Assembly: GCA_043753995.1 (NCBI GenBank)
Contig: JAYUVP010000093.1
Location: forward strand, 1-40,181
Origin: Fibrobacterota bacterium
Lineage (GTDB): Bacteria; Fibrobacterota; Fibrobacteria; UBA11236
Length of the DNA stretch: 40,181 nt
Reading direction: 5' to 3'
In this document: positions 10,897-26,985 of the stretch, piece after piece
Layout of the letters: the number at the start of each line of letters is the position of its first letter
Position numbering within the stretch: position 1 is the first letter of the stretch
Notes under the pieces: model-generated
What the model was told of the DNA's origin: nothing
The model's database searches: none
The model's input: the letters and a program-made list of their open reading frames with translations, nothing else
Program-made: the position numbers and the translations under genes

Positions 10897-11604
10897 ATGG
10901 TTTTTGCGTTCAAGGGAAAAACCCAAATTGCCGCAGGGATGGTTTTCGCCATGCTGGGCGCGGGCTGCGTTTTTCAAACCGACGGTAACAGGCAGGGGAC
11001 TCTCCTGTTTCTCGGAAATTCCATCACGCGGCATGACAGCCTACCCGAAATCGGTTGGACCCAGGTGAATGGCATGGCCGCCACCGAGCCCGCTAAGGAC
11101 TATGTGCATCAAACCATGGCTTTTCTTGCTGCCCAAGGCTTCGGCGCGGAGGCGACCGTAGGTGCACGCGATTGTGATCTTTGTGATGGACCCATAGACG
11201 AGCATATTCACAATGCTGCCCGCGAAGTGCGGCTCTTGCAGCCTTTGGCCGTCGTGGTGCAATTGGGGGAGAATAGCAGTGAAGTCGAAATTGCAGCCGG
11301 TAAATTGACCGCGCAATACCGGCGGCTCCTGCAAGTACTTGAGGAGGCCGGGGCGAAGCGCATCCTGGCCTTAAGCGTGTGGGGCGATACCAGCTTGACG
11401 GGGCCGCGCAATAAAGCGGTGCAGTTGGCCTTGGCCGATTTCCCCAAGGTGCGCTTTCTTGATCTTACGGCCCTTTCTAAAGACCCTACGAATTATGGCG
11501 ACACCGCGAAGTACCGCAATGATGCGGTGAGTTGGCATCCCGGGGATCGAGGCATGCGCCTTATTGGCGAGCAAGTGGCCAAGGCCATTTTGGAGGCGAT
11601 GTGA
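10897..11604 (+). CDS. SGNH/GDSL hydrolase lipoprotein
   Basis: Lipobox LGAGC; block I FLGNSIT, block III QLGEN, block V WHPGDRGM. Confidence 0.8.
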   Translation: MVFAFKGKTQIAAGMVFAMLGAGCVFQTDGNRQGTLLFLGNSITRHDSLPEIGWTQVNGMAATEPAKDYVHQTMAFLAAQGFGAEATVGARDCDLCDGPIDEHIHNAAREVRLLQPLAVVVQLGENSSEVEIAAGKLTAQYRRLLQVLEEAGAKRILALSVWGDTSLTGPRNKAVQLALADFPKVRFLDLTALSKDPTNYGDTAKYRNDAVSWHPGDRGMRLIGEQVAKAILEAM

Positions 11605-14363
11605 ATTTCGTGAGTAGGCAATGGGGAAAATGGCTGGCGGCCTTGGTCTTGTCCCTAGCCGTGCCGGCATTGGCTAAAATCAAAGTGACTGCGGAGCAGG
11701 CGCGTGCCTTTCTCGGTGGGCGCACAGGCAAGGTCCTCTATACCAAGACCTTTGATCGCAAATTGTATTTCGTCGATTTCAGCGATAGTCTCTTGGTCGA
11801 GCATAAGGTGTCCGATGATCAGTATGTGTTGAATCCGAAAATATCGCCCGATGGCAGCCGGGTAGTCTATGAAAGCTATGGCGTCATTTATATACGCGAA
11901 TTAGTCGCCAATAGTTCGCAACGCTTCGCCGTGATGACGGCGCCCTTTCAGACGGGCCGATTTTACGAACCGCATTGGTGGGTACATCCCGTCACGGGTG
12001 CCGAATACATCAGCTATTCGACCGGAGATCCGGCCGAGGAGGCCTGGCCGCCCATCACCGGCGTCACCACCATGCAGCGCATCTCGAAAAATAAGCCCGA
12101 CACGTTGGCTGTGCAGCTTCTGCCTTATACCATGGGCACGGCGCGATCGCGCAATGGCAAGTGGGGCGGCTCTTCGAATCATTCCACCGGCCTTTTCAAG
12201 CTCGACTCGACACGGATAGATAGCGCCTTTCTCGACTCCAAGAATTGGCTCGATTCGGGATTGACTTATTCCAATTGCAATCCCAGCATCAATCCCAGCG
12301 CCAATCCCGCCCATCAAAGCCGTATGCTGCATTTGGGCGGCGGCCAATACACGCTTTTCGGTGAGATTCACGACAATCACAAAGCAGTCATCATGCGCTC
12401 TTGGGATGACGTCGACATCGATCATCCGGTTTGGTTTATGGGTGCCTTGGGCGATCGCGTCGACAACGACAGTTCCGGAAATATTTATTGGCACCATTGT
12501 GAATGGTCGAATAACGAGGATTATTTCGCGCTCAATGGATCCACCATCATCGAAAGTTGGGATTCGGCCGACGTGTATTTGGTGAAAATCAATTTCACTG
12601 GCAATAGCAAGCCTCTGCGCGTCATCCAGGGTGGCGGCGTCAATATCACTCCTGACCTTTGGGTCAAGGATGGCGTACAGCCCGCACGCATACGCCTCGA
12701 CAAAGGCGAATTGCATCGTGTGAGTTTGCGCGCTGACACCACGACCCTATTGCCCGACACCTTGCGCATCAGCAATGCGGGCGATGGCACCTTGCCCGGA
12801 CTTCAGGTCAGCGCTACACCCAAATGGCTCAAAGTCACTCTGGTGGACAATGGCACCAATCATCCCCTGCTGGTGAATCGGATTTTGCGCGATAGCGTTC
12901 CTCTGGGAGAATATCGCGACACGGTGGCGGTGACCTATGGCGGTGGCGTCGATAGCGCTATCTATGTAGTGACCTTTAGCTATCGCGATCCCGTATTGAC
13001 CACCTTAGATCCCAAGCCGCATACCGCCATCGTATTGCCGAAGGGTCAAACTTCCTTGTCAGCCCTGGCCTTGGATCAAATCGGCGATACCCTGGCGAAT
13101 CCACCCACGGTGACTTGGTCTGCCCCGATGGGCATATCGGGATTCACGGCAGCGGGGAAATACACGGCGGACACCCTGCCGCCTGCACCTCATGGTTTTC
13201 TCGCCATTGGCCAAAGCATGGGGCCCTCGGGCACGGTGGCGTGCACCACCCAGGTGCGTGTGGCGCGCATTTGGCAGCGCGCGGATATTGGGGTATCGGA
13301 GGCGTTACGATCGGGATCGGTCGCGGCAGGGTCGGCATGGGACAATGCCCCGAGGTTTTCAGTTTTAGGCGACTCTGTGAAGCTGGGTCGGGTACCTGAC
13401 TCGTTACGTCTGGATTTGGATGGTACCGTCGATCCCGCTCCTGACAGTGTGCTGCGAAGCTATGCTGACTTCACGGGATTTCGTTTTGCCAGCTTGCCGA
13501 AGGGCCGCTACCGCTTGCGCATGGGCCTTGTCACCGGGGGGCGACTGGACACTTCCCTGACGTCCTCCTGGATTTTGAAACTCGAAGGCAAAACGGCTTT
13601 TGAGGGTCGCCATTCCAAGCTGATTCTCAGCCGAGCCTGGAGCGTCATCACGGCGGAAGCTGTCGTCACGGTTTCCGACACGGATGGTCTGGTGGGCGAA
13701 TTCCTCGGCCTCAGCGAGGCGGGATTGCATGTGGCCAGCCTGGAGATTTTCGACTTCGCTTTACCCCCCGTCACGGTTTTGTCTCCCAATGGCGGAGAAA
13801 ATTTGCGCACCAAGGACACCTTGCACATTCGTTGGAATACCGATGGCAATGTGGTTTCGGTGGGTATTCAAATTTCTGTGGACTCGGGCAAGAAGTGGAT
13901 CCCAGTGACACGCAATTCCAGCGTGGGCAATCGCGATCCGGCCTGGGGAAATTATGCCTGGGTTTTGCCGGATTCGCTGGATGGCCAAGACTTCGTCACG
14001 GGCAAGGCCATGATTCAGGTCTACGACTATTTCGGAAGCGATCGCGATCGCTCCGACGCAATTTTTTCGCTGGTCAAAGGCCCGGCGGCTTTGCGCCCCG
14101 AAGGGGCGACCTTGGCGCGTGCGACGCGCTTTTCGGCCCGCTGGCAAAGCGGCGCGGGACTACGCTTGCGGGGTTTGACGCCGGGGCAAAATGTCGATGT
14201 GGCCTTGCTCGACAGCCGCGGCCGCTGGGCGGCGGCGCAGCGTCATGTGCCCGTCAATGCCCAGGGGGATGCGACCTGGACGACGCAAGCACCGAGAGGC
14301 GTTTATCGCCTCTGGGTGCGACAGGGCAAGGCCAAACATATTGCGGCGATTGCAGTGTATTAG
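11601..14363 (+). CDS. Large secreted multidomain protein: TolB-like beta-propeller, Ig/BACON-like, malectin-like, Ig (SPNGGE) and basic T9SS-like C-terminal domain
   Basis: GGAGG RBS, GTG overlapping the upstream stop. Signal peptide ..AVPALA|K; PKISPDGSRVVY; ISNAGDGTL..W; DPAPDSVLRS..GRYRLRM; VTVLSPNGGE; C-terminus LLDSRGR...RGVYRLWVRQG. Confidence 0.65.
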   Translation: MNFVSRQWGKWLAALVLSLAVPALAKIKVTAEQARAFLGGRTGKVLYTKTFDRKLYFVDFSDSLLVEHKVSDDQYVLNPKISPDGSRVVYESYGVIYIRELVANSSQRFAVMTAPFQTGRFYEPHWWVHPVTGAEYISYSTGDPAEEAWPPITGVTTMQRISKNKPDTLAVQLLPYTMGTARSRNGKWGGSSNHSTGLFKLDSTRIDSAFLDSKNWLDSGLTYSNCNPSINPSANPAHQSRMLHLGGGQYTLFGEIHDNHKAVIMRSWDDVDIDHPVWFMGALGDRVDNDSSGNIYWHHCEWSNNEDYFALNGSTIIESWDSADVYLVKINFTGNSKPLRVIQGGGVNITPDLWVKDGVQPARIRLDKGELHRVSLRADTTTLLPDTLRISNAGDGTLPGLQVSATPKWLKVTLVDNGTNHPLLVNRILRDSVPLGEYRDTVAVTYGGGVDSAIYVVTFSYRDPVLTTLDPKPHTAIVLPKGQTSLSALALDQIGDTLANPPTVTWSAPMGISGFTAAGKYTADTLPPAPHGFLAIGQSMGPSGTVACTTQVRVARIWQRADIGVSEALRSGSVAAGSAWDNAPRFSVLGDSVKLGRVPDSLRLDLDGTVDPAPDSVLRSYADFTGFRFASLPKGRYRLRMGLVTGGRLDTSLTSSWILKLEGKTAFEGRHSKLILSRAWSVITAEAVVTVSDTDGLVGEFLGLSEAGLHVASLEIFDFALPPVTVLSPNGGENLRTKDTLHIRWNTDGNVVSVGIQISVDSGKKWIPVTRNSSVGNRDPAWGNYAWVLPDSLDGQDFVTGKAMIQVYDYFGSDRDRSDAIFSLVKGPAALRPEGATLARATRFSARWQSGAGLRLRGLTPGQNVDVALLDSRGRWAAAQRHVPVNAQGDATWTTQAPRGVYRLWVRQGKAKHIAAIAVY

Positions 14364-16450: not shown

Positions 16451-18802
16451 TCACCGTATTGAGGTTTTTCTTTTTGCGACAGAGTGACAATATCCTGTCA
16501 ATAAGGCGAAACCCGCCGCACAAAGAGCACATAGCTTGAAAAACGCGATCGGGAAAAAACGCATTTCGATTTTGCTGTTCACCTGGTCAATCACCCCATA
16601 TTGGAAACCATTCACGTCACGAAGCATGGGCTGCCACCTTCCATCGCCCGTGCGCATTTGCCATCCCGGCCAATAGTGCTCGCGAAAAACCAAGGTGTCG
16701 CCGGCTTTAAAGGACCCGCGTATTTCGAGTTGTCCATCGCGAGGTTCCAGGGCGCAGAGGTCGGCGTGGCGGGCGAAGGCTTCAGGGCAGGGTGGCGGGC
16801 TGTCCTGGAGGGAGTCGAGTGCCTGCGGATTCGCATCGCTTCGCGAGGGTTTGCGCTCCAGGCGAGGGGCATAGCTTGGCATTTCGTAAACCGCGACGCT
16901 ACCGTAACGCCCGAGTTTCTCCAGGGCTTGGCCGTGAAAGGACGTGAAGTCATGATCGGTGAGGAGATAGCGTGCTGACAAGTCGGTGGGTGCCATGACG
17001 CGGCCCCAATTCCAGAGCAGGGGCAAATGCGCCGAAGCGTGCCGTATGCCGTATACCGCGTGGATGCCATAGCTCAAGGCAGATTTTTCGCGCTCATACA
17101 AGTCGAGGCGGCGTAGGGGTTGATGATGCATGAGCCACAGGCTATCGCCGGGATATTCGAGATAATGCGTTATGCGCCAAAACGGCTTGTTTTTCAGGTC
17201 GAGGACGGGAAGGGTTGTTGGCGGCCGCGTATAATAGTCGGACGGGAATTTGTGAAAATGCACCCAATGCAAGCGGAGGCTTCCCGCACCGAGCAGCAAG
17301 AACAAAAGAGGAAGGAAGACCCGCCTATCACTTCGACTAGGACTTCGACGCCAAACCCAGGAGCAAAGAAAAAGGGCCAAGGCCATCCAGATAAAATCGT
17401 GACCGAGATCGCGACAAAGCACCATGAGCTTGGGACCGTAGTTTTTGCCGTGGACCTGGGTGGAGATCAGGCTCCAGGGCCAAGCGCTGAGGCCCAGGTA
17501 AAGCAATGCTCCGGCGCCCAAGGCATGCAGCGCAGCGCCAATAGGCAAAAGCTTGTGCAGGGCAATGCGATGTCGGCCCGCGAGAAAACCACGTAGGCCA
17601 TGGCCGCAGAATGCGGCGAGGGCGAGGAGGAAGAGGATGTCATAGCGGCCGGGCCGTCGCATTTCGCCGAAGCCGGGCAAGTGAAAAGTGATGTGACTGG
17701 CGAAAAGCAGAGGACCCAAGGCCAGCCAAAGTCCGGCAAGTCCAATCCCGCCCAGCACGAGCAAGCGAGGCGAGAGGCTGCGCCTACGGGCGAAGAAAAG
17801 CATGAGCAGGCCCAGGCCTCCTAGACCCACATAGACCTCGGTCCAGGGTTCATGGCCCCACCAGGTCGCATGTGCCGGAGTCCCCAGGGCATAAGGGTAA
17901 AGCAAGGCCAGCAAATGCTTGGGCCGCAAAGCGCCAGCGGTGAATTCCGTAAAGCCGAAGGCGCTGACTCCCGAGGTATCACGCAAGTGACTATCCGGGC
18001 TGTCGTTTTGCGAATGGCCGTTTTGTAGGCTGCCGCTTTCCCACGTCACACCGCCGTAACGTCCCGTCTCGGAGACGAGTTGCAGGAAGGGAAGGAAAAG
18101 CGGGAGGCATAGGCAAAGCGCCAGGGCATGCGCTCGAAACCCGGACATCAAGCGCGGCCAAGGCCAAAGAGTGAAGGGCAAAAGCAAAAGCCCTTGGGTG
18201 AAGGTCGCCTGCGGATGTCCGCCATAGGCTTGCAAAGCGAAGACCGCGGCATAGGCGCATAGACGGCCCGAGGTGGGCTTTTCCCGGGCGCGCAAAAAGA
18301 GCCCCAGCACCCAAGGCATATAGGCCCAACCCGCCATAAAGGTGGGATGCTCATAACGCGCCAGTAACGGTCCCGACAGAGCGAAAACCACGCCCGCCCA
18401 TAGCGAGGGCGCACGGCCGAGGCGCAATTGCGGGCCTAAGACCGTGAAGCCAAAGGCGGCTACAGCGAAATGCAAGGCATAAAAAGCATAGAGGCCGATT
18501 TGCGGCGACAGCGGGCCGAAGCAAAGCCAGGTGATGGGATAAAGCCAGCCGCTTTGCCAATAAGCATACATGGGCATGCCCGTCTGATAGCTACTGCTCC
18601 ACAAAGGCAAATGCGTGAGGGAAAAATCGCGATGGAAGTCAGCGAAATAACAGTAATAGGCCACCAGCATGTCTTGAATGAGCACGGTATGGCGGCCGAG
18701 AGCCAAGGGTAACAGGGCCGCTACCCCCAGTAACAGGCAAAAGACGGGGGTGAAGCCCGGTTTGCGCAGCCAGCGGTCTAAAAAAAAGGATGTTGGGAGC
18801 AT
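16451..18802 (-). CDS. YfhO-like GT-C integral membrane glycosyltransferase
   Basis: LPLWSS..TGMP.YA..Q.GWLYP, GGHPQ, YVGLGGL, MRRPGRY; C-terminal periplasmic domain with YWPGW and a terminal TM helix. Confidence 0.75.
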   Translation of the reverse strand: MLPTSFFLDRWLRKPGFTPVFCLLLGVAALLPLALGRHTVLIQDMLVAYYCYFADFHRDFSLTHLPLWSSSYQTGMPMYAYWQSGWLYPITWLCFGPLSPQIGLYAFYALHFAVAAFGFTVLGPQLRLGRAPSLWAGVVFALSGPLLARYEHPTFMAGWAYMPWVLGLFLRAREKPTSGRLCAYAAVFALQAYGGHPQATFTQGLLLLPFTLWPWPRLMSGFRAHALALCLCLPLFLPFLQLVSETGRYGGVTWESGSLQNGHSQNDSPDSHLRDTSGVSAFGFTEFTAGALRPKHLLALLYPYALGTPAHATWWGHEPWTEVYVGLGGLGLLMLFFARRRSLSPRLLVLGGIGLAGLWLALGPLLFASHITFHLPGFGEMRRPGRYDILFLLALAAFCGHGLRGFLAGRHRIALHKLLPIGAALHALGAGALLYLGLSAWPWSLISTQVHGKNYGPKLMVLCRDLGHDFIWMALALFLCSWVWRRSPSRSDRRVFLPLLFLLLGAGSLRLHWVHFHKFPSDYYTRPPTTLPVLDLKNKPFWRITHYLEYPGDSLWLMHHQPLRRLDLYEREKSALSYGIHAVYGIRHASAHLPLLWNWGRVMAPTDLSARYLLTDHDFTSFHGQALEKLGRYGSVAVYEMPSYAPRLERKPSRSDANPQALDSLQDSPPPCPEAFARHADLCALEPRDGQLEIRGSFKAGDTLVFREHYWPGWQMRTGDGRWQPMLRDVNGFQYGVIDQVNSKIEMRFFPIAFFKLCALCAAGFALLTGYCHSVAKRKTSIR

Positions 18803-20739: not shown

Positions 20740-21420
20740 ATGATTCTGCATGTCCGCCAAGGCGGCTTTTTTCGAAACAACGGTCTTTCCGTCGTCTTCT
20801 TCGCCCTATTCCTCGGAACCCTCGCAGCTCAGAGCCTCGCGGGATGGCTCACCTACAATGAGGATCAAATAATCCATTCAGCGCCTGAGGTGGACTTTTC
20901 CTCCTACCTAATGCGACCGCATTTCTGGCAAGCCATGGGCGAAAATTGGGAAAGCGAATTCCTGCAAATGGTCGCCTACGTGCTCCTCACGGCTTTCCTT
21001 TTTCAGCGCGGGTCTTCCGAGTCGAAGGACCCGGACAAGGAAGAAGAGGTGGATCAGGAACCCAAAAGGAGTCGAATACTTAAAGATGCCCCTTGGCCCG
21101 TGCATGCCGGCGGGTGGGTGCTCGGACTTTACCGCTATTCCCTGACATGGGCATTTCTCTTGCTTTTCCTGCTTTCCTTTGGATTGCACGCTTGCGCGGG
21201 GGTTCGGAAATTCAATGAAGAGGCGGCCCAGCAAGGGCAGGCCCTCCAAACCTTATCTCAATTCCTCTTATCCCCTGATTTCTGGTTCGAGTCCATGCAG
21301 AATTGGCAAAGCGAATTCCTGGCGATTTTCGCCATGATCACGCTTTCCATTTTCTTACGCCACAAGGGGTCTCCCGAATCGAAACCCTTAATGGCGCCCC
21401 ATTCCCACACGGGGAGATGA
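20740..21420 (+). CDS. DUF6766-like membrane protein
   Basis: Duplicated motif ENWESEFL...RGSSESK / QNWQSEFL...KGSPESK; several TM helices. Confidence 0.75.
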   Translation: MILHVRQGGFFRNNGLSVVFFALFLGTLAAQSLAGWLTYNEDQIIHSAPEVDFSSYLMRPHFWQAMGENWESEFLQMVAYVLLTAFLFQRGSSESKDPDKEEEVDQEPKRSRILKDAPWPVHAGGWVLGLYRYSLTWAFLLLFLLSFGLHACAGVRKFNEEAAQQGQALQTLSQFLLSPDFWFESMQNWQSEFLAIFAMITLSIFLRHKGSPESKPLMAPHSHTGR

Positions 21421-21428
21421 ATTGCTCA

Positions 21429-22046
21429 TTACCATCCGGCAACCGTCGTATCGGCGAAGGTCGCGAAAATGAAATCGCGTTGACTCATATTCAGGTGACA
21501 TGAGGCGCACATGGATTTGACCGCTGGATTTCGGCTATCGCCTTTCACCACCCAAGCGCCGGTTGTGGTCCATGCCAAATATTCCCAGTCGCCTCCTGCG
21601 GAATCATAACCCGCACCATGCTTGAGCATGGCGGCAAGAAAAAGCGGTGAACCGGGCTGGCCGGAGGAATCGGTATAGTGCTCTTTGAGAAATATTGTAC
21701 CGGGGGTATAGGTGACATAGCTGGAGGAATCCATGGCCTCATCCGCCTCGATGTCCAATTCACGCAACTGCCCGCGGTGATTGATAAAATAATCCTGGGG
21801 CCTTTGGTTGACAAAAATACGGACCCGCTGATTCCAATGCAGACCTGATTTTTCGAAAACCGTGACTCTCGTAAAAAGGTTTCGATATTCAGCGGCGAAA
21901 TGGGGTGAGTCGACGGGGGGCGGCCAGGGAGACGGCCTTTCCGCGGACCGAGCCGAATGCGTGACATCCGGCACGTCGGAATGGCGCTGACCGCATCCCA
22001 CGACGAAGGCGATACAAATAATTATTAGTGTGACAAAAGGAATCAT
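21429..22046 (-). CDS. Cytochrome P460-family lipoprotein
   Basis: Lipobox VVGC; YTPGTIFLKE; MLK..GYD..GGDWEY; C-terminal CASCH...DFIF. Confidence 0.75.
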   Translation of the reverse strand: MIPFVTLIIICIAFVVGCGQRHSDVPDVTHSARSAERPSPWPPPVDSPHFAAEYRNLFTRVTVFEKSGLHWNQRVRIFVNQRPQDYFINHRGQLRELDIEADEAMDSSSYVTYTPGTIFLKEHYTDSSGQPGSPLFLAAMLKHGAGYDSAGGDWEYLAWTTTGAWVVKGDSRNPAVKSMCASCHLNMSQRDFIFATFADTTVAGW

Positions 22047-22681
22047 TCTAATGTCGCAGCGACGGTGCCTTCAGCCTTGCCTTTCGACAGTATCTCGCCT
22101 TTTTGCTCGGCTCCCTTGGTAAGCTTTACGGTTAGAGGTTCGTGCTTTGGTGACCAGAAATGCATTTCGGTGGCTTGATCAGGAACACCCTCGATGGTGA
22201 AGGCGATCGATTTTTCTCCAGGCTTGGGTTCTAGAATGGAATGCGCTTGGCTGGGCACATTGGCGATCCAGCTTTGCATTTTCGGATGGATTTTACAGCC
22301 AATGCGTACGACTTGGCCTTCGGTCCATGTCACCTTGAGTTTGGCGTCTTGACCCGGAGGCACTAGTCCCGCGTCGAAATTGATTCCGGTGCCGGCATCA
22401 TTCGCAAAGACATTGTGATCGACATTATCTGCATTCTTGAAGGTGATTTCAGACCCCGATTTGCCGACCGTCATTTTTTCCGAGAATTGTTTGTCTTTTT
22501 GATTGATGGCGACTGATGACGGCGAAGGTTTTCCGCCGGCCACCCAGACTAAGGCGACCTGAGGAGGGAGCTTCGCAAAGGTAAGGGTGCCCTTCACCTT
22601 AGCGGCATGCGAGGCTGCGAAGCAAAGGAATAGGGTTGCGAAAACCAAGGTGTTCAAGGGTGGGATAGGCCGGGGATTCAT
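22043..22681 (-). CDS. Periplasmic cupredoxin-domain protein (MauL-like, type 1 Cu site)
   Basis: Signal peptide ..ASHA|A; INQKDKQF; FKNADNVDHNVF; CKIHPKM; AGGA RBS before ATG 22681. Confidence 0.8.
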   Translation of the reverse strand: MNPRPIPPLNTLVFATLFLCFAASHAAKVKGTLTFAKLPPQVALVWVAGGKPSPSSVAINQKDKQFSEKMTVGKSGSEITFKNADNVDHNVFANDAGTGINFDAGLVPPGQDAKLKVTWTEGQVVRIGCKIHPKMQSWIANVPSQAHSILEPKPGEKSIAFTIEGVPDQATEMHFWSPKHEPLTVKLTKGAEQKGEILSKGKAEGTVAATLE

Positions 22682-22708
22682 AAAGTATTCCTGGGTTGAC
22701 AATCGGAA

Positions 22709-23749
22709 TCAGCGGACCGAACCATGACCCTTTGCATCGTCGGGCGGAATGCGAGGTGAATCGACCAAAAGTGGCTCGTTGATGGCCCCCATAAAGGCCA
22801 CCAAATCCTGAATCTCTGGTTCGCTCAAGTTTAATGGAAGAATGAGATTGCTGATACCTGCTTTATTGTTGCCACCGCGGTTATAGAAACGCACCACGTC
22901 TTCGACAGATTTTTCTGAACCATTATGCATGTAGGGGGCGCTATACAGGACATTGCGCAATCCCGGAGTCTTGAAGGCGCCCAACATGCCGGGACCCTTC
23001 ATGATTTTCACGCGCCCCGAATCCTCGCCGGTGACCCCGATATTGTGGAAGCTGTCATCCGTCATATTGGGACCACTATGGCATTGCGTGCAGCGTCCCT
23101 TGCCTTCAAAAAGAGCCAGACCGCGAACCGCATGCGGACTCATGGCAAGCTTGTCCCCGCGTAGGTAGCGATCGTATGGCGTATTGGTTACGATGAGGCT
23201 GCGTTCAAAGGAGGCGAGTGCCTTGGCGACATTTTCCACTTGGAGGCCATTCTTACCGTAGACGACTTCAAATTCTCGGCGATAATACGATGCTTTTTTT
23301 AGCCTGGGGGCAATAGAGTCGATGGGCAAATTCATCTCGCCTCCAGCGGCAATTGGCCCCAAGGCCTGTTGTTCGAGAGTGGCGGCGCGCCCATCCCAAA
23401 AGAAAATCGAACCCCAGGCGAGGTTGACCAAATGCGGGGCATTGCGGCCCACCCTGCCGCCCTTGGCGCCAATCCCGGCGGCCATACCGTCGCTGAAGCC
23501 TAAGGTGGGGTTGTGGCATGTCGCGCAGCTTTGCGTTTGGTTGAAGGAAAGTCGAGTGTCGAAAAACAAGGTTTTGCCGAGCTCGATTTCTTGCTTCGAA
23601 GGTGGAGCCCCGTCAGGGTATTCGATGGCTTCCGCATTAGGTGTGCCAATTTTGGTTGCCGGTGAGGCGGTGGAGGCCGCAAGCGGGGCTTGGGCCAAAG
23701 CGATGCCAAGAAAGACAAGGGTGTGCCGGGTAATGGTTTTCTTGTTCAT
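22709..23749 (-). CDS. Di-heme cytochrome c peroxidase superfamily protein, MauG-like
   Basis: Signal peptide; LGKTLFFDTRLS, CATCH, RNAP, FWDGRA, EM, CTQCH, FKTPGLRNV..APYMHNG...VVRFY; GGAG RBS before ATG 23749. Confidence 0.88.
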   Translation of the reverse strand: MNKKTITRHTLVFLGIALAQAPLAASTASPATKIGTPNAEAIEYPDGAPPSKQEIELGKTLFFDTRLSFNQTQSCATCHNPTLGFSDGMAAGIGAKGGRVGRNAPHLVNLAWGSIFFWDGRAATLEQQALGPIAAGGEMNLPIDSIAPRLKKASYYRREFEVVYGKNGLQVENVAKALASFERSLIVTNTPYDRYLRGDKLAMSPHAVRGLALFEGKGRCTQCHSGPNMTDDSFHNIGVTGEDSGRVKIMKGPGMLGAFKTPGLRNVLYSAPYMHNGSEKSVEDVVRFYNRGGNNKAGISNLILPLNLSEPEIQDLVAFMGAINEPLLVDSPRIPPDDAKGHGSVR

Positions 23750-23763
23750 AGGCAAACTCCTCG

Positions 23764-25437
23764 CTAAGTCAATAGATCGGTCGGTTGTGATGGATTTAAT
23801 AACCTGAAATTTCCGACTAAATCGCGCAGGCTATTCGCGACCTTGGATAATTCTTCGGCGAATTCACGAGTTTGACCCGCGACTTCACGCGTTTCGACCG
23901 CCGCTTCGGTCACGTGATGAATGGTTTCGCTGATGGAATGATTGCGTTCGGCGAGTTCGGCCGCATGCGCTCCAATCGCGCTGGTGGTGGTCGCCTGTTG
24001 GCTCATGGCATTGGCAGCAAAGGTTTGAATGTCGCGCATGTGTCCGATGGTTTTGACGATATGGGTAATGCTTCCAGCCGCCGTATCGGAGTCGTCGCTG
24101 ATGGCCTTGGCGCGGTTGGCGATATCATCGGTGGCTTTTCTGGTTTGCCGCGCGAGATCTTTGACTTCGATGGCAACCACGGCGAATCCTTTGCCCATTT
24201 CTCCGGCGCGTGAGGCCTCGATGGTGGCATTGAGCGCGAGCATATTGGTTTTATCGGCGATGCTTTGAATCGCCGAAGTCACGCTGGTGATGGTTGTTCC
24301 GGTTTGCAGCAATTGGGTCATGGCGGTTTTTGCGGCTGCGGCCTGGTCGACGCCCAATTGCGCGGCCTGGACGGCTTCTCTTGTGCCCGAGACAACGCCA
24401 TCGATACCTTGCGACAACTCTTGGGTGGCTTTGGCGACCTCTTCGACCCGGCGCGACATTACATTGGAGTGCTCCAAAGCAGTAGCGGCTTTGACAGCCG
24501 TATCGCCCGCGGAGCGATTCAACAAGCCGCTGCAATGGAGCAATGCTCCCGAGCGTTGCTGCAATTGGGTCGACGCCGTTTCGATCGAGAGCAAGGTCGC
24601 GCTCAAGTTTTGTATGGCTTGGTTCAAGGCGGATCCCATTTGACCCACTTCATCTCGGGTGGGATTATCAATGCGCCGGGTGAGATCCCCGGATGCGAGA
24701 GCCTGGGCTAGGCCTCTCACCTCGGCGACGGGATTCGTGATATTTCGCGAAATAAATTGGAAGAAAAACGCGGCAAGACCGATCGAGATCAGGGCAACCG
24801 ACCATGTGATATAGGTGCTATGGCGAATGCGTAGTGTGGCGAGGGCGGAGGCCTTCACCGCATCGGAACCAATGGCATCCGCTAAGGTTTCGATTATAGG
24901 CTGCATCTTTTTGTAATCCACTTCCAAGGTGGCGGTAGATTGGTATACGCTCTTGTCGTCGCTTGATAATACGGTCTCCAGGTCATTACGGTAGAGATCA
25001 ACGTCCGTTCTCAACTCGACCAGGCCTGCCATCACTTCCCGACTCAATTTGAGCGATTCTAGATTGCTGATATAACTTTCCAAGCCTGCGCCTCCGGCTT
25101 CAAAATCTTCAATGCTGGATTGCAGGACATCGCCGTCATTGCGCTCAATCGCATCGGCGCCGCGTATCGCCACACCGCGCAAAGTTTCAATGGATTTGTC
25201 GATCAGCAGGATATTGCGCACCCCGGCGAGTTGGTCGGTGGCCAAAGCGTGTATATCCTTGCCCGATCGGTTGAGGTTGAATTGCCCAACCAGGGAAAGC
25301 AAAAGCGTCGCCATCGAAAGTAAAAGGAAAAGCGATCCCAGTTTCGCGCGCAATGGCCAATCGACAAACCGGCCCTGGGGTAGGGGATGCGAGAGGCGGT
25401 ATATTACTGCGAGAAAACGCGACGACTTTGTGCCCAT
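23764..25437 (-). CDS. Methyl-accepting chemotaxis protein (four-helix-bundle sensor, HAMP, signalling domain)
   Basis: Two TM helices, HAMP ([23 protein letters not shown]), [37 protein letters not shown]. Confidence 0.93.
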
Positions 25438-25665: not shown

Positions 25666-26985
25666 ATGTTTCGAAATGTGAACTTTTCCCTTGCGGCCTG
25701 GATGGCCTTTGTTTTTCTTGTCACAGGTTGCGGCAAAAGCAAAAACACGGCAGTTGAAGAAAAATGTGGTAGCGATACGACGACTCTAGTCATCACCATC
25801 ACCGCTCCTTCCGGCGTCAGCCCTGACATCACCGTGAGTGGACCCCAAGGTTTTTCCCAGCAAGTCAGCGCCACGACCAAGCTTTCTGGAGTCAAAGCGG
25901 GACTCTATACGTTCGCGGGCCGCCGTCACAAGGTCGCGGGATCCCCGATTGGAAAAGCCTTCTATGCCCTCATCGACGCCAATATCGCTTCAGAGCAGTT
26001 GACCTTGAAGAGTTGCCAGCCCGAAACCGTGACGGTAGATTACAAACAAGAACCGGGTAGCGAAAAACTTTGGGTGCTGGAAGACGGAATCAAGTCCTTT
26101 ACCTTGGCGGCCATCGCGGCCAGCGGTTCGCCCACGGCCTCGGCGCGTTTCGCCACTCCCGCTGGAGCCCGTAGTTTGGCATTCGATGCGGATGGAAATT
26201 TGTGGTTTACCCATGCTCAGGGAATTAGCATGCTGGCCATGCGCGACCTGGGAACTTCGGGGGCACCGACTTCGGTGGCCTTGACCGGAGCCGGTGCCGC
26301 AGGAACGGGCATACCGGGTGCCAAGGGTTTGGCTTTCGACGCCGAGGGTAACTTGTGGGTTGCCTATGGCGCTGACGATAAAGTGGCTTGTTTCCTGAAA
26401 AGCCAATTGGCTGACAGTGGCAGCCCCACACCGAGCCGGCAAATTTCTGGCCCCGATTTGCTGTCTCCCGACGCCATTGCCTTCGATGCCGAGGGTAACT
26501 TGTGGGTGACGAGTGCCGAGGGCCCGGCCATTCTGAAGTATTCCGCGTCCAGGCTCGCCGCCACCTATGCCGGAACTGCCGACCTATCCATTCAAACTAT
26601 CAGTGCTCCACCCGTGATAGTCCCCTATCCTGATCCCCAGGCCTTGGCCTTCGATGCAGACAAAAACCTGTGGGTGAGTTACGGCGGTAGCACTCTGGTG
26701 CGCTTAACGCCTGCTCAACGAGCGGTCTCCGATTCCGCCTTGACGCCCTCCGTAGTCATCGATGTCGGCGTCTTGGCCTTAGCCGAGGGATTGGCTTTTG
26801 ACGGGGATGGAAAATTGTGGATGCCGGGCAAGGTTGGAAAAATCGTTTCGGGGGCGGCAAGTTCGCTTGCCGCTTCGGGAGCTCTTCTTGCAGCCATCAC
26901 ATTAAGCCCGACGGGTTTTGGCTATGCCGCCGCCTTGGCCGTGAATCCGGCGCCCAGCATGTTGCCGCTTCGGGATCACGAATAG
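25666..26985 (+). CDS. Lipoprotein with NHL/Vgb-like beta-propeller repeats
   Basis: AGGAG RBS; lipobox VTGC; five (L/I)AFDxxG/KxLW repeats. Confidence 0.8.
   Translation: MFRNVNFSLAAWMAFVFLVTGCGKSKNTAVEEKCGSDTTTLVITITAPSGVSPDITVSGPQGFSQQVSATTKLSGVKAGLYTFAGRRHKVAGSPIGKAFYALIDANIASEQLTLKSCQPETVTVDYKQEPGSEKLWVLEDGIKSFTLAAIAASGSPTASARFATPAGARSLAFDADGNLWFTHAQGISMLAMRDLGTSGAPTSVALTGAGAAGTGIPGAKGLAFDAEGNLWVAYGADDKVACFLKSQLADSGSPTPSRQISGPDLLSPDAIAFDAEGNLWVTSAEGPAILKYSASRLAATYAGTADLSIQTISAPPVIVPYPDPQALAFDADKNLWVSYGGSTLVRLTPAQRAVSDSALTPSVVIDVGVLALAEGLAFDGDGKLWMPGKVGKIVSGAASSLAASGALLAAITLSPTGFGYAAALAVNPAPSMLPLRDHE

Follow-up and report, generated by a model that had tools for sequence, protein, structure and literature searches.

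A chemoreceptor operon with a periplasmic copper and haem redox trio in a Fibrobacterota bacterium, and a possible role of the trio in receptor signalling

Bacterial receptors can sense through a partner protein: periplasmic binding proteins serve chemoreceptors in this way, as the haem sensors H-NOX and NosP serve kinases and cyclases. Bacterial di-haem peroxidases, such as that of Paracoccus, take electrons from cupredoxin donors, and the mau clusters encode the cupredoxins amicyanin and MauL. As described in PMC6405878, the six-coordinate haem of MauG has Tyr-His ligation and the CCP_MauG superfamily holds many uncharted clusters. For cytochromes P460 that bind hydroxylamine (NH2OH) without turnover, a review (PMC11928373) assigns no function; the terms operon, chemota- and gene neighbo- are absent from the text of that review. 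Here, we describe an operon that encodes a chemoreceptor together with a di-haem enzyme of the CCP_MauG superfamily, a blue-copper protein and a cytochrome P460. It lies in a 40,181-nucleotide (nt) stretch of DNA from a Fibrobacterota bacterium (contig JAYUVP010000093.1 of assembly GCA_043753995.1), the whole of which is referred to as the window.

The operon runs from 25437 to 21429 on the minus strand, and its four co-oriented genes encode, in this order, a methyl-accepting chemotaxis protein (MCP; 557 amino acids (aa), 23764..25437; Pfam 4HB_MCP_1, HAMP and MCPsignal), an exported CCP_MauG-superfamily di-haem enzyme with MauG-type haem ligands (346 aa from its ATG, 22709..23749; Pfam CCP_MauG, 183.8 bits), an exported two-domain blue-copper protein, or type-1 cupredoxin (212 aa, 22043..22681; assigned from its ligands, an AlphaFold2 model and Foldseek), and a cytochrome P460-family haem protein, a putative lipoprotein (205 aa, 21429..22046; Pfam PF16694, 34.1 bits against a cut-off of 27). 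With ATG starts, the MCP and di-haem genes are separated by 14 nt and the di-haem and cupredoxin genes by 27 nt, and the cupredoxin and P460 genes share an ATGA overlap. The open reading frames (ORFs) and Pfam matches reproduce exactly the four linked, co-oriented genes and the spacings of a preliminary description of this DNA. Alternative TTG starts lie upstream of the di-haem gene (23755) and of the cupredoxin gene (22702). No terminator-like site was found in the gaps of the operon, and a scan for promoters and terminators gave no more sites than shuffled sequence. Export signals at the N termini, and the lipobox VVGC in the P460 protein, were assigned by visual inspection of the translations. 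The genome contains a single P460 gene, six CCP_MauG matches (four over the family cut-off) at five places, and chemotaxis machinery with nine CheW-domain matches. We place at about even the chance that the four genes form an operon of a chemoreceptor and a three-protein periplasmic redox module that serves as its accessory sensor, in which the receptor reads the copper protein.

The conservation of the trio was examined by a cupredoxin-anchored pattern scan of species genomes, which gave 446 matching stretches; the best 80 were retained, and the 57 closest loci (L006-L062) were read by tblastn with the window proteins, a simple ORF call and Pfam on the neighbours. The full trio of di-haem, cupredoxin and P460 genes is present in 50 of the 57 loci, and its order is kept in nearly all of them, with L027 as the exception. 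Three loci are cut at a contig end (L039, L056 and L059), and four are truly partial: L038 lacks the di-haem gene, L057 and L061 lack the P460 gene, and L060 has the cupredoxin alone. Record titles and tree labels assign the loci to eight phyla (Pseudomonadota, Acidobacteriota, Verrucomicrobiota, Planctomycetota, Fibrobacterota, Cloacimonadota, Bdellovibrionota and SAR324), and culturable marine bacteria, including Shewanella, Pseudoalteromonas, Thalassomonas, Litorivivens and Spongiibacter, carry the module.

A gene for a membrane signalling protein is directly adjacent at 52 of the 57 loci. These proteins comprise 34 MCPs, 10 GGDEF proteins, six histidine kinases and two others, namely a dCache protein cut at a contig end and a HAMP-GAF protein; 38 of the 52 were checked with Pfam, and the other 14 (L014 and 13 Pseudoalteromonas loci) were assigned by tblastn and ORF size only. 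The sensor gene is placed upstream, downstream or divergently relative to the trio, and in most loci the P460 gene abuts or overlaps it. In a sister genus (G001), the same MCP-first four-gene operon is found, with an MCP that is 33% identical to that of the window over its full length. A P460-anchored scan of metagenome contigs, run to offset the bias of anchoring on the cupredoxin, gave 19 loci, one of which (L101) is probably the same contig as L012. The cupredoxin gene adjoins the P460 gene in all 19, and the di-haem gene was found in each of the 14 loci with a contig long enough to hold it. By tblastn only, 15 of the 19 have an adjacent sensor of MCP or GGDEF type, and three of the other four contigs end just past the P460 gene. 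The preliminary description had called for a survey of whether the trio is kept next to MCP, histidine kinase or GGDEF sensors, and had counted a linkage unique to this genome as evidence against a module. Both the genome loci and the metagenome loci answer the survey positively, and the 50 loci with the trio, like the sister-genus operon, show that the linkage is not unique.

The type of receptor beside the trio changes between related loci. A maximum-likelihood analysis of 35 di-haem proteins places those of the window, G001 and L006 in one group (95/89), and in L006 (genome G011) the trio stands with a CHASE4-like kinase in place of the MCP; the trio has therefore been kept within this group while the receptor was exchanged. 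The GGDEF-linked modules form a clade together with two contig-cut loci (100/98), and the remainder of the tree is poorly resolved. The di-haem protein of L039, which bears the label of a Phenylobacterium metagenome-assembled genome (MAG), groups at 100/100 with Alteromonadaceae and Algicola loci, which may reflect gene transfer or a binning error. The cupredoxin also occurs beside sensors without the full trio: in L060, in L038 (with P460 and a kinase), in L057, in L061, and in G013 (L087 2617-6462), where a lone cupredoxin gene (41% identity) is flanked by genes for a REC-HD-GYP protein and for a membrane histidine kinase whose periplasmic domain is helical and ~150 aa long. 

Some further arrangements were noted at these loci. 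The trio-linked MCPs of the 15 Pseudoalteromonas loci are 805-806 aa long and divergent from the trio, and a C-terminal PilZ domain, which binds cyclic di-GMP (c-di-GMP), was confirmed by Pfam in L018 and L022 only. Two tandem MCP genes follow the trio in L020 (8379-12502) and L040 (6886-10951), with periplasmic domains that are homologous and diverged. In three loci of Alteromonadales type, L019 (2688-3914), L037 (8358-9560) and L046 (8219-9418), a Methyltransf_32 gene lies convergent just downstream of the P460 gene.

The window cupredoxin consists of an amicyanin-like type-1 copper domain and an extra C-terminal beta-sandwich. The copper ligands H89, C129, H132 and M135 are invariant in 51 of 51 relatives, and the protein carries the motifs HNVF and CKIHPKM; the loop spacing C-x2-H-x2-M is that of amicyanin. 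The AlphaFold2 model has a cupredoxin fold, with a predicted local distance difference test (pLDDT) score of 92.9, and its top Foldseek matches are Cupredoxin_1 (4hcf) and amicyanins, with a template modelling score of ~0.70 on the target. No Pfam or NCBIfam family matched the protein at E<=0.01. A word search found 21 relatives, and the nearest clusters in the Atlas carry the automatic name 'methylamine utilization protein'. More distant relatives (~30% identity, from Acidobacteriota and others) match Pfam Copper-bind and CarboxypepD_reg, that of L080 matching PF00127, and by Pfam on their loci they lie mostly in clusters of Rieske, cytochrome b and multi-haem genes. Two of these distant relatives adjoin a dCache kinase and a dCache_3 Ser/Thr kinase.

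Two further groups of cupredoxin loci were recorded. In Acidobacteriota (L080 5326-13672; also L069, L071 and L078), distant cupredoxin + CarboxypepD_reg proteins are encoded between a ~550-aa protein and a Pyr_redox_2/Fer4 protein; in L080, where the scan extended further downstream, Rieske, cytochrome b and multi-haem cytochrome c genes follow, and the arrangement resembles an uncharted respiratory cluster. In L114-L131, from the phylum of G041, a di-haem gene with a product 44-47% identical to that of the window lies directly beside the gene for a single-domain cupredoxin of ~100-140 aa, with no P460 match within +/-1.5 kb.

The cupredoxin was chosen for complex modelling because it is the only part of the trio that is seen beside sensors alone. 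Two copies of the periplasmic part of the MCP (residues 50-210) were modelled with cupredoxin residues 27-212. The interaction prediction score from aligned errors (ipSAE) is 0.66, compared with 0.00 for the best of three controls; agreement between the runs covers at least 87% of contacts, and the partner has a pLDDT of 88. The score mark is reached by 116 of 157 solved complexes and by two of 215 mismatched pairs, a calibration that is rough for this model, which used its own alignments and one chain in two copies. We know of no solved cupredoxin-chemoreceptor complex, and recall by the predictor is therefore an unlikely source of the passing score. The modelling of the MCP sensor domain with its neighbours had been proposed in the preliminary description, and for the cupredoxin it supports binding to the receptor. 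On the cupredoxin side, the predicted interface comprises residues 87-95, 103-106 and 126-136, which include the copper loop GCKIHPKM and the exposed ligand His132. On the MCP side, residues 67, 70-71, 74-75, 78, 109-130, 151 and 154 of one copy and residues 187-198 of the other are predicted to make contact. In amicyanin, the equivalent His flips off the copper on reduction; by analogy, a flip of His132 could give a state-dependent change at the docking face.

By its hydrophobic segments, the window MCP has a first transmembrane (TM) segment at residues ~33-51, a periplasmic helical domain at ~52-208 (24814..25284 on the minus strand), which is the predicted cupredoxin docking site, and a second TM segment at ~210-229, followed by the HAMP and MCP signalling domains. 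Most of the trio-linked sensors have their TM segments near residues 15-30 and 317-335 and thus a periplasmic domain of ~285 aa. Those of the gammaproteobacterial MCPs and GGDEF proteins are homologous (E mostly ~1e-24 to 1e-48, ~23-32% identity), and thus represent one sensor domain with exchanged outputs. A CHASE4/dCache_3-like class is found in a Fibrobacteria kinase (L006), a Planctomycetota MCP (L017), an Opitutales MCP (L024) and a MAG kinase (L061), and a short helical class of ~150-190 aa in the window, in G001, in Acidobacteriota MCPs and in the kinases of G013, L008 and L047. A single sensor domain shared by all trio loci was rejected as a candidate, with the short helical domains showing no BLAST similarity between groups.

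With MCP residues 28-232 as the query, a word-index search matched only the protein itself. Among 1.84 billion representatives, the window sensor domain has 15 weak relatives at E<=1e-3, which are MCPs of Bdellovibrio and its relatives. We also considered whether this sensor family is generally linked to a cupredoxin and rejected it, as a trio gene lies within ~1.5 kb at none of 20 Bdellovibrionota loci. The Bdellovibrionota relatives (P0024-P0036) share the conserved motif QLPAVRNMxLxDMMHDGLRA, in which Met-Met-His looks like a metal site and sits one helical turn past the predicted contact residues. The Met-Met-His motif is lost in the window (DKSIETLRG, 25197..25205) and in G001 (TDAQDGLRA).

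The di-haem enzyme scores 271.4 bits against the NCBIfam model for MauG (TIGR03791, cut-off 443.85) and 213.5 bits against that for MbnH (TIGR04039, cut-off 362.85), and is therefore the equivalog of neither. In a plain sequence search, its closest solved structures are the peroxidase 2c1u (162 bits), 6e1c (136 bits; record name 'Di-heme enzyme'), which we take to be MbnH, and MauG (92 bits). In the alignment to 2c1u, the Met of VKIM, the axial ligand of the high-potential haem of the peroxidase, corresponds to Tyr289 in VRFYNRGG, and the distal His of SIGHGW corresponds to Ala95. Among 35 relatives drawn from trio loci, the two CxxCH motifs are invariant, the inter-haem Trp118 is kept in 34, Tyr occupies the Met-ligand position in all 35, and the distal position is never His (A, T, S, N or Q). 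The identification as a canonical cytochrome c peroxidase was rejected on the Met-to-Tyr exchange and the missing distal His. Judged from its residues, the enzyme is MauG-like at the level of the haem ligands (His/Tyr) and lies outside the MauG and MbnH families. The label 'MauG-like' of the preliminary description thus stands for the haem ligands and does not extend to membership of either family.

No mauA/mauB-, MbnP- or LodA-like gene lies near the operon, which Pfam confirmed for the window neighbours as the preliminary description had stated, and no known MauG or MbnH substrate is encoded among them. In the genome itself, which is 97% complete, neither the light chain of methylamine dehydrogenase (MADH; PF02975) nor a match to the MbnP model TIGR04052 was found; the blank for PF02975 is a weak one, with the control matched in none of 14 control genomes.

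The model of the P460 protein has a pLDDT of 84.9, and its top 21 Foldseek matches are all cytochromes P460 or c'-beta. A cross-linking Lys separates P460 from c'-beta, and a second-sphere Glu is needed for NH2OH oxidation in the P460 of Nitrosomonas europaea. The haem motif CxxCH (C180/C183/H184) is invariant in the relatives of the window protein. In a profile of 39 relatives, K121 corresponds to Lys106 and A138 to A131 of the P460 of Nitrosomonas sp. AL212 (PDB 6amg), a numbering backed by the title of PDB 6w6n ('K106L/A131E') and by the review PMC11928373. The putative cross-link residue K121 is kept in all 39 relatives, and its covalent bond to the haem is predicted. A second-sphere carboxylate was not found: the A131 column contains A in four, T in 28, V in three and S in four of the 39 sequences, and E, D or Q in none. 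By these residues, the protein is a probable cross-link-type P460 that would bind NH2OH without turnover.

What was computed here is which genes the set comprises, their folds and ligand residues, the conservation of their synteny, the exchange of outputs and a complex model that passes its controls; from these, a mechanism can be assembled as follows. The blue-copper protein would dock through its copper-site face on the periplasmic helical bundle of the receptor, which would read whether the cupredoxin is oxidised or reduced, or else whether it carries copper. The MauG-like enzyme, with a five-coordinate peroxide-binding haem and a His/Tyr haem, would draw electrons from the copper protein with hydrogen peroxide (H2O2). 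The P460 protein, with its Lys cross-link and no distal carboxylate, may bind nitric oxide (NO) or NH2OH and exchange electrons with the copper protein. The receptor would in this way inform the chemotaxis machinery of how oxidants and reactive nitrogen species are balanced in the periplasm. In other bacteria, diguanylate cyclases or histidine kinases take the place of the chemoreceptor beside the same module. The preliminary description had envisaged a possibly undescribed periplasmic redox module with the MCP as its signalling outlet. The genomic linkage (52 of the 57 genome loci, 15 of the 19 metagenome loci and the sister-genus operon) supports this part of it, to which the docking model adds the cupredoxin as the predicted contact with the MCP. 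The stimulus, for which peroxide, NH2OH or NO had been suggested, is a conjecture that goes beyond the linkage, as are a detoxifying role and the maturation of a neighbour by the MauG-like enzyme.

Several observations count against a receptor that reads the copper protein. At least three classes of periplasmic domain without detectable mutual similarity occur beside the trio, and the evidence therefore falls short of one conserved docking mode. The interface motifs of the MCP are also conserved in the wider Bdellovibrionota sensor family, where no trio gene lies within ~1.5 kb at the 20 loci examined; they are therefore not conserved specifically for cupredoxin partners. Copper binding already accounts for the invariance of the copper loop, and the position of the loop at the interface is hence no independent support; in addition, the models were built without haem or copper. 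Five of the 57 loci have no directly adjacent sensor: L019, with an MCP two genes away, L025, L027, which is a 3.7-kb contig, L052, and L056, which lies at a contig end. The loci are not independent, with 15 of the 57 from Pseudoalteromonas, and both scans were anchored on trio members, which under-samples relatives without the module.

Three other explanations were weighed against the proposed reading of the copper protein by the receptor. The MauG-like enzyme could be a peroxide-driven maturase for the Lys-haem cross-link of the P460 protein or for the cupredoxin; the mature P460 protein would then be the NO/NH2OH sensor that speaks to the receptor, and the cupredoxin would supply or remove electrons. 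The cross-link Lys is invariant (39/39), the P460 gene abuts or overlaps the sensor gene in most loci, and the classic substrates of MauG and MbnH were not found in the genome, the PF02975 blank being weak. The His/Tyr haem, here with Tyr in 35 of 35 relatives, also fits a maturase; in MauG, for which this ligation is described (PMC6405878), such a haem supports long-range oxidation of the partner protein. A review describes the formation of P460 cross-links as peroxide-dependent and 'not well understood' (PMC11928373). However, the same review states that P460 cross-links form in vitro without a helper enzyme. Moreover, L057 and L061 have the di-haem enzyme, the cupredoxin and a sensor but no P460 gene, L038 has the cupredoxin, P460 and a kinase but no di-haem gene, many genomes of the G041 phylum pair the di-haem gene with a single-domain cupredoxin and have no P460 match within +/-1.5 kb, and the receptor complex model covers the cupredoxin and not the P460 protein. 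We regard this maturation model as unlikely.

The absence of an adjacent sensor at L025 and L052, which do hold the trio, would be expected if the trio were a stand-alone chain for detoxification or electron transfer, which reduces H2O2 and/or oxidises NH2OH or NO, with receptors that sense something else and are only co-inherited or co-expressed. The closest solved structures of the di-haem enzyme by sequence are peroxidases (2c1u with 162 bits, compared with 92 for MauG), and the distant cupredoxin relatives in respiratory clusters of Rieske, cytochrome b and multi-haem cytochrome genes point in the same direction. Such a chain appears quite improbable to us: 52 of the 57 loci have an adjacent signalling gene, its position takes three forms and its outputs are of three kinds, and neither MCPs nor diguanylate cyclases control transcription; in addition, none of the 35 relatives retains the Met ligand or the distal His of peroxidases, and the MCP-cupredoxin model passes its controls. 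If the receptor instead read the copper loading of the cupredoxin, the module would report the supply of periplasmic copper and not redox stress. The predicted interface at the copper-site face with the exposed His132 suits copper sensing, as does the Met-Met-His motif of the sensor-domain relatives one helical turn past the predicted contacts. Neither the window sensor nor that of G001 has this motif, the neighbourhood of the window operon contains no copper-handling genes, and the di-haem enzyme and the P460 protein would be left without a role, which makes copper sensing very unlikely. 

The proposal of a redox-reading receptor can be generalised, and this we do tentatively, with doubt outweighing confidence. 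In many phyla, the blue-copper protein would be a periplasmic signalling intermediate, whose state is written by the MauG-like enzyme (H2O2) and the P460 protein (NO/NH2OH) and read at the copper-site face by chemoreceptors, diguanylate cyclases or kinases; the MauG-like enzyme may also be the missing catalyst of the Lys-haem cross-link in the P460 family found here.

The operon is flanked by a gene for a DUF6766 membrane protein (20740..21420, plus strand, convergent) and by a gene for an NHL-propeller lipoprotein (25666..26985), both assigned with Pfam. The DUF6766 gene ends 8 nt from the P460 stop codon, and tblastn over 85 loci matched it at the window locus (L001) alone and at none of the related loci. 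The wider window encodes envelope functions, with glycosyltransferases, a methyltransferase, an FKBP isomerase, a PAS hybrid kinase and PA14 proteins. Two large ORFs, at 16451..18802 (minus strand; 783 aa, strongly hydrophobic) and 11532..14363 (plus strand; 943 aa), match no Pfam family at E<=1e-5 and sit amid genes for glycosyltransferases, methyltransferases and acyltransferases.

A full-text literature search, judged from abstracts, found no publication on a copper/haem redox trio beside receptors. Sensing through an accessory protein is already known, and a copper/haem redox trio in that role would be new. If the proposed mechanism is correct, it would give cytochromes P460 their first physiological context outside nitrifiers, and would likewise provide a first context for the many MauG-like di-haem enzymes that have no known substrate and for the cupredoxins annotated in databases as 'methylamine utilization protein'. 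Chemotaxis, c-di-GMP and two-component signalling would also gain a new kind of input, with a redox metalloprotein whose state is read by the receptor in place of a small ligand. The module is present in culturable marine bacteria, and the proposal is therefore directly testable.

Compared with the described systems, the window trio shares single features with each. As in the mau clusters, a His/Tyr di-haem CCP_MauG enzyme is encoded beside a small C-x2-H-x2-M cupredoxin; in contrast to those clusters, the enzyme stays under the MauG cut-off (271 versus 443 bits), the MADH light chain was not found in the genome, the cupredoxin has an added C-terminal beta-sandwich, and a P460 protein and a signalling receptor join the set. 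MbnH-MbnP likewise pairs a MauG-like di-haem enzyme with an exported copper protein outside a mau cluster, and 6e1c is matched with 136 bits, whereas the window enzyme scores 213 against the required 362 bits, no MbnP-like protein was found in the genome, and the partner is a type-1 cupredoxin without the MbnP fold. The cytochrome c peroxidases (Paracoccus, 2c1u) have the two CxxCH motifs, the inter-haem Trp (34/35), a cupredoxin partner and the top sequence match in common with the window family, which differs in the Tyr at the position of the Met ligand (35/35) and in the lack of the distal His (all 35). The P460 of strain AL212 (6amg) resembles the window protein in fold, in the CxxCH motif, in the predicted cross-link Lys (K106/K121) and in the non-acidic second-sphere residue (A131/A138). 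The similarity between the two is very low (profile E 5e-6), however, and the window family has an N-terminal region of its own, in which SGLHW is invariant, travels with the cupredoxin (19/19 loci) and occurs in non-nitrifying lineages. With receptors that sense through a partner protein, the locus shares a candidate signal-binding protein that is encoded separately beside receptors with interchangeable MCP, GGDEF or kinase outputs and is predicted to dock on them; the difference is that the partner here is a periplasmic three-protein redox set centred on a blue-copper protein.

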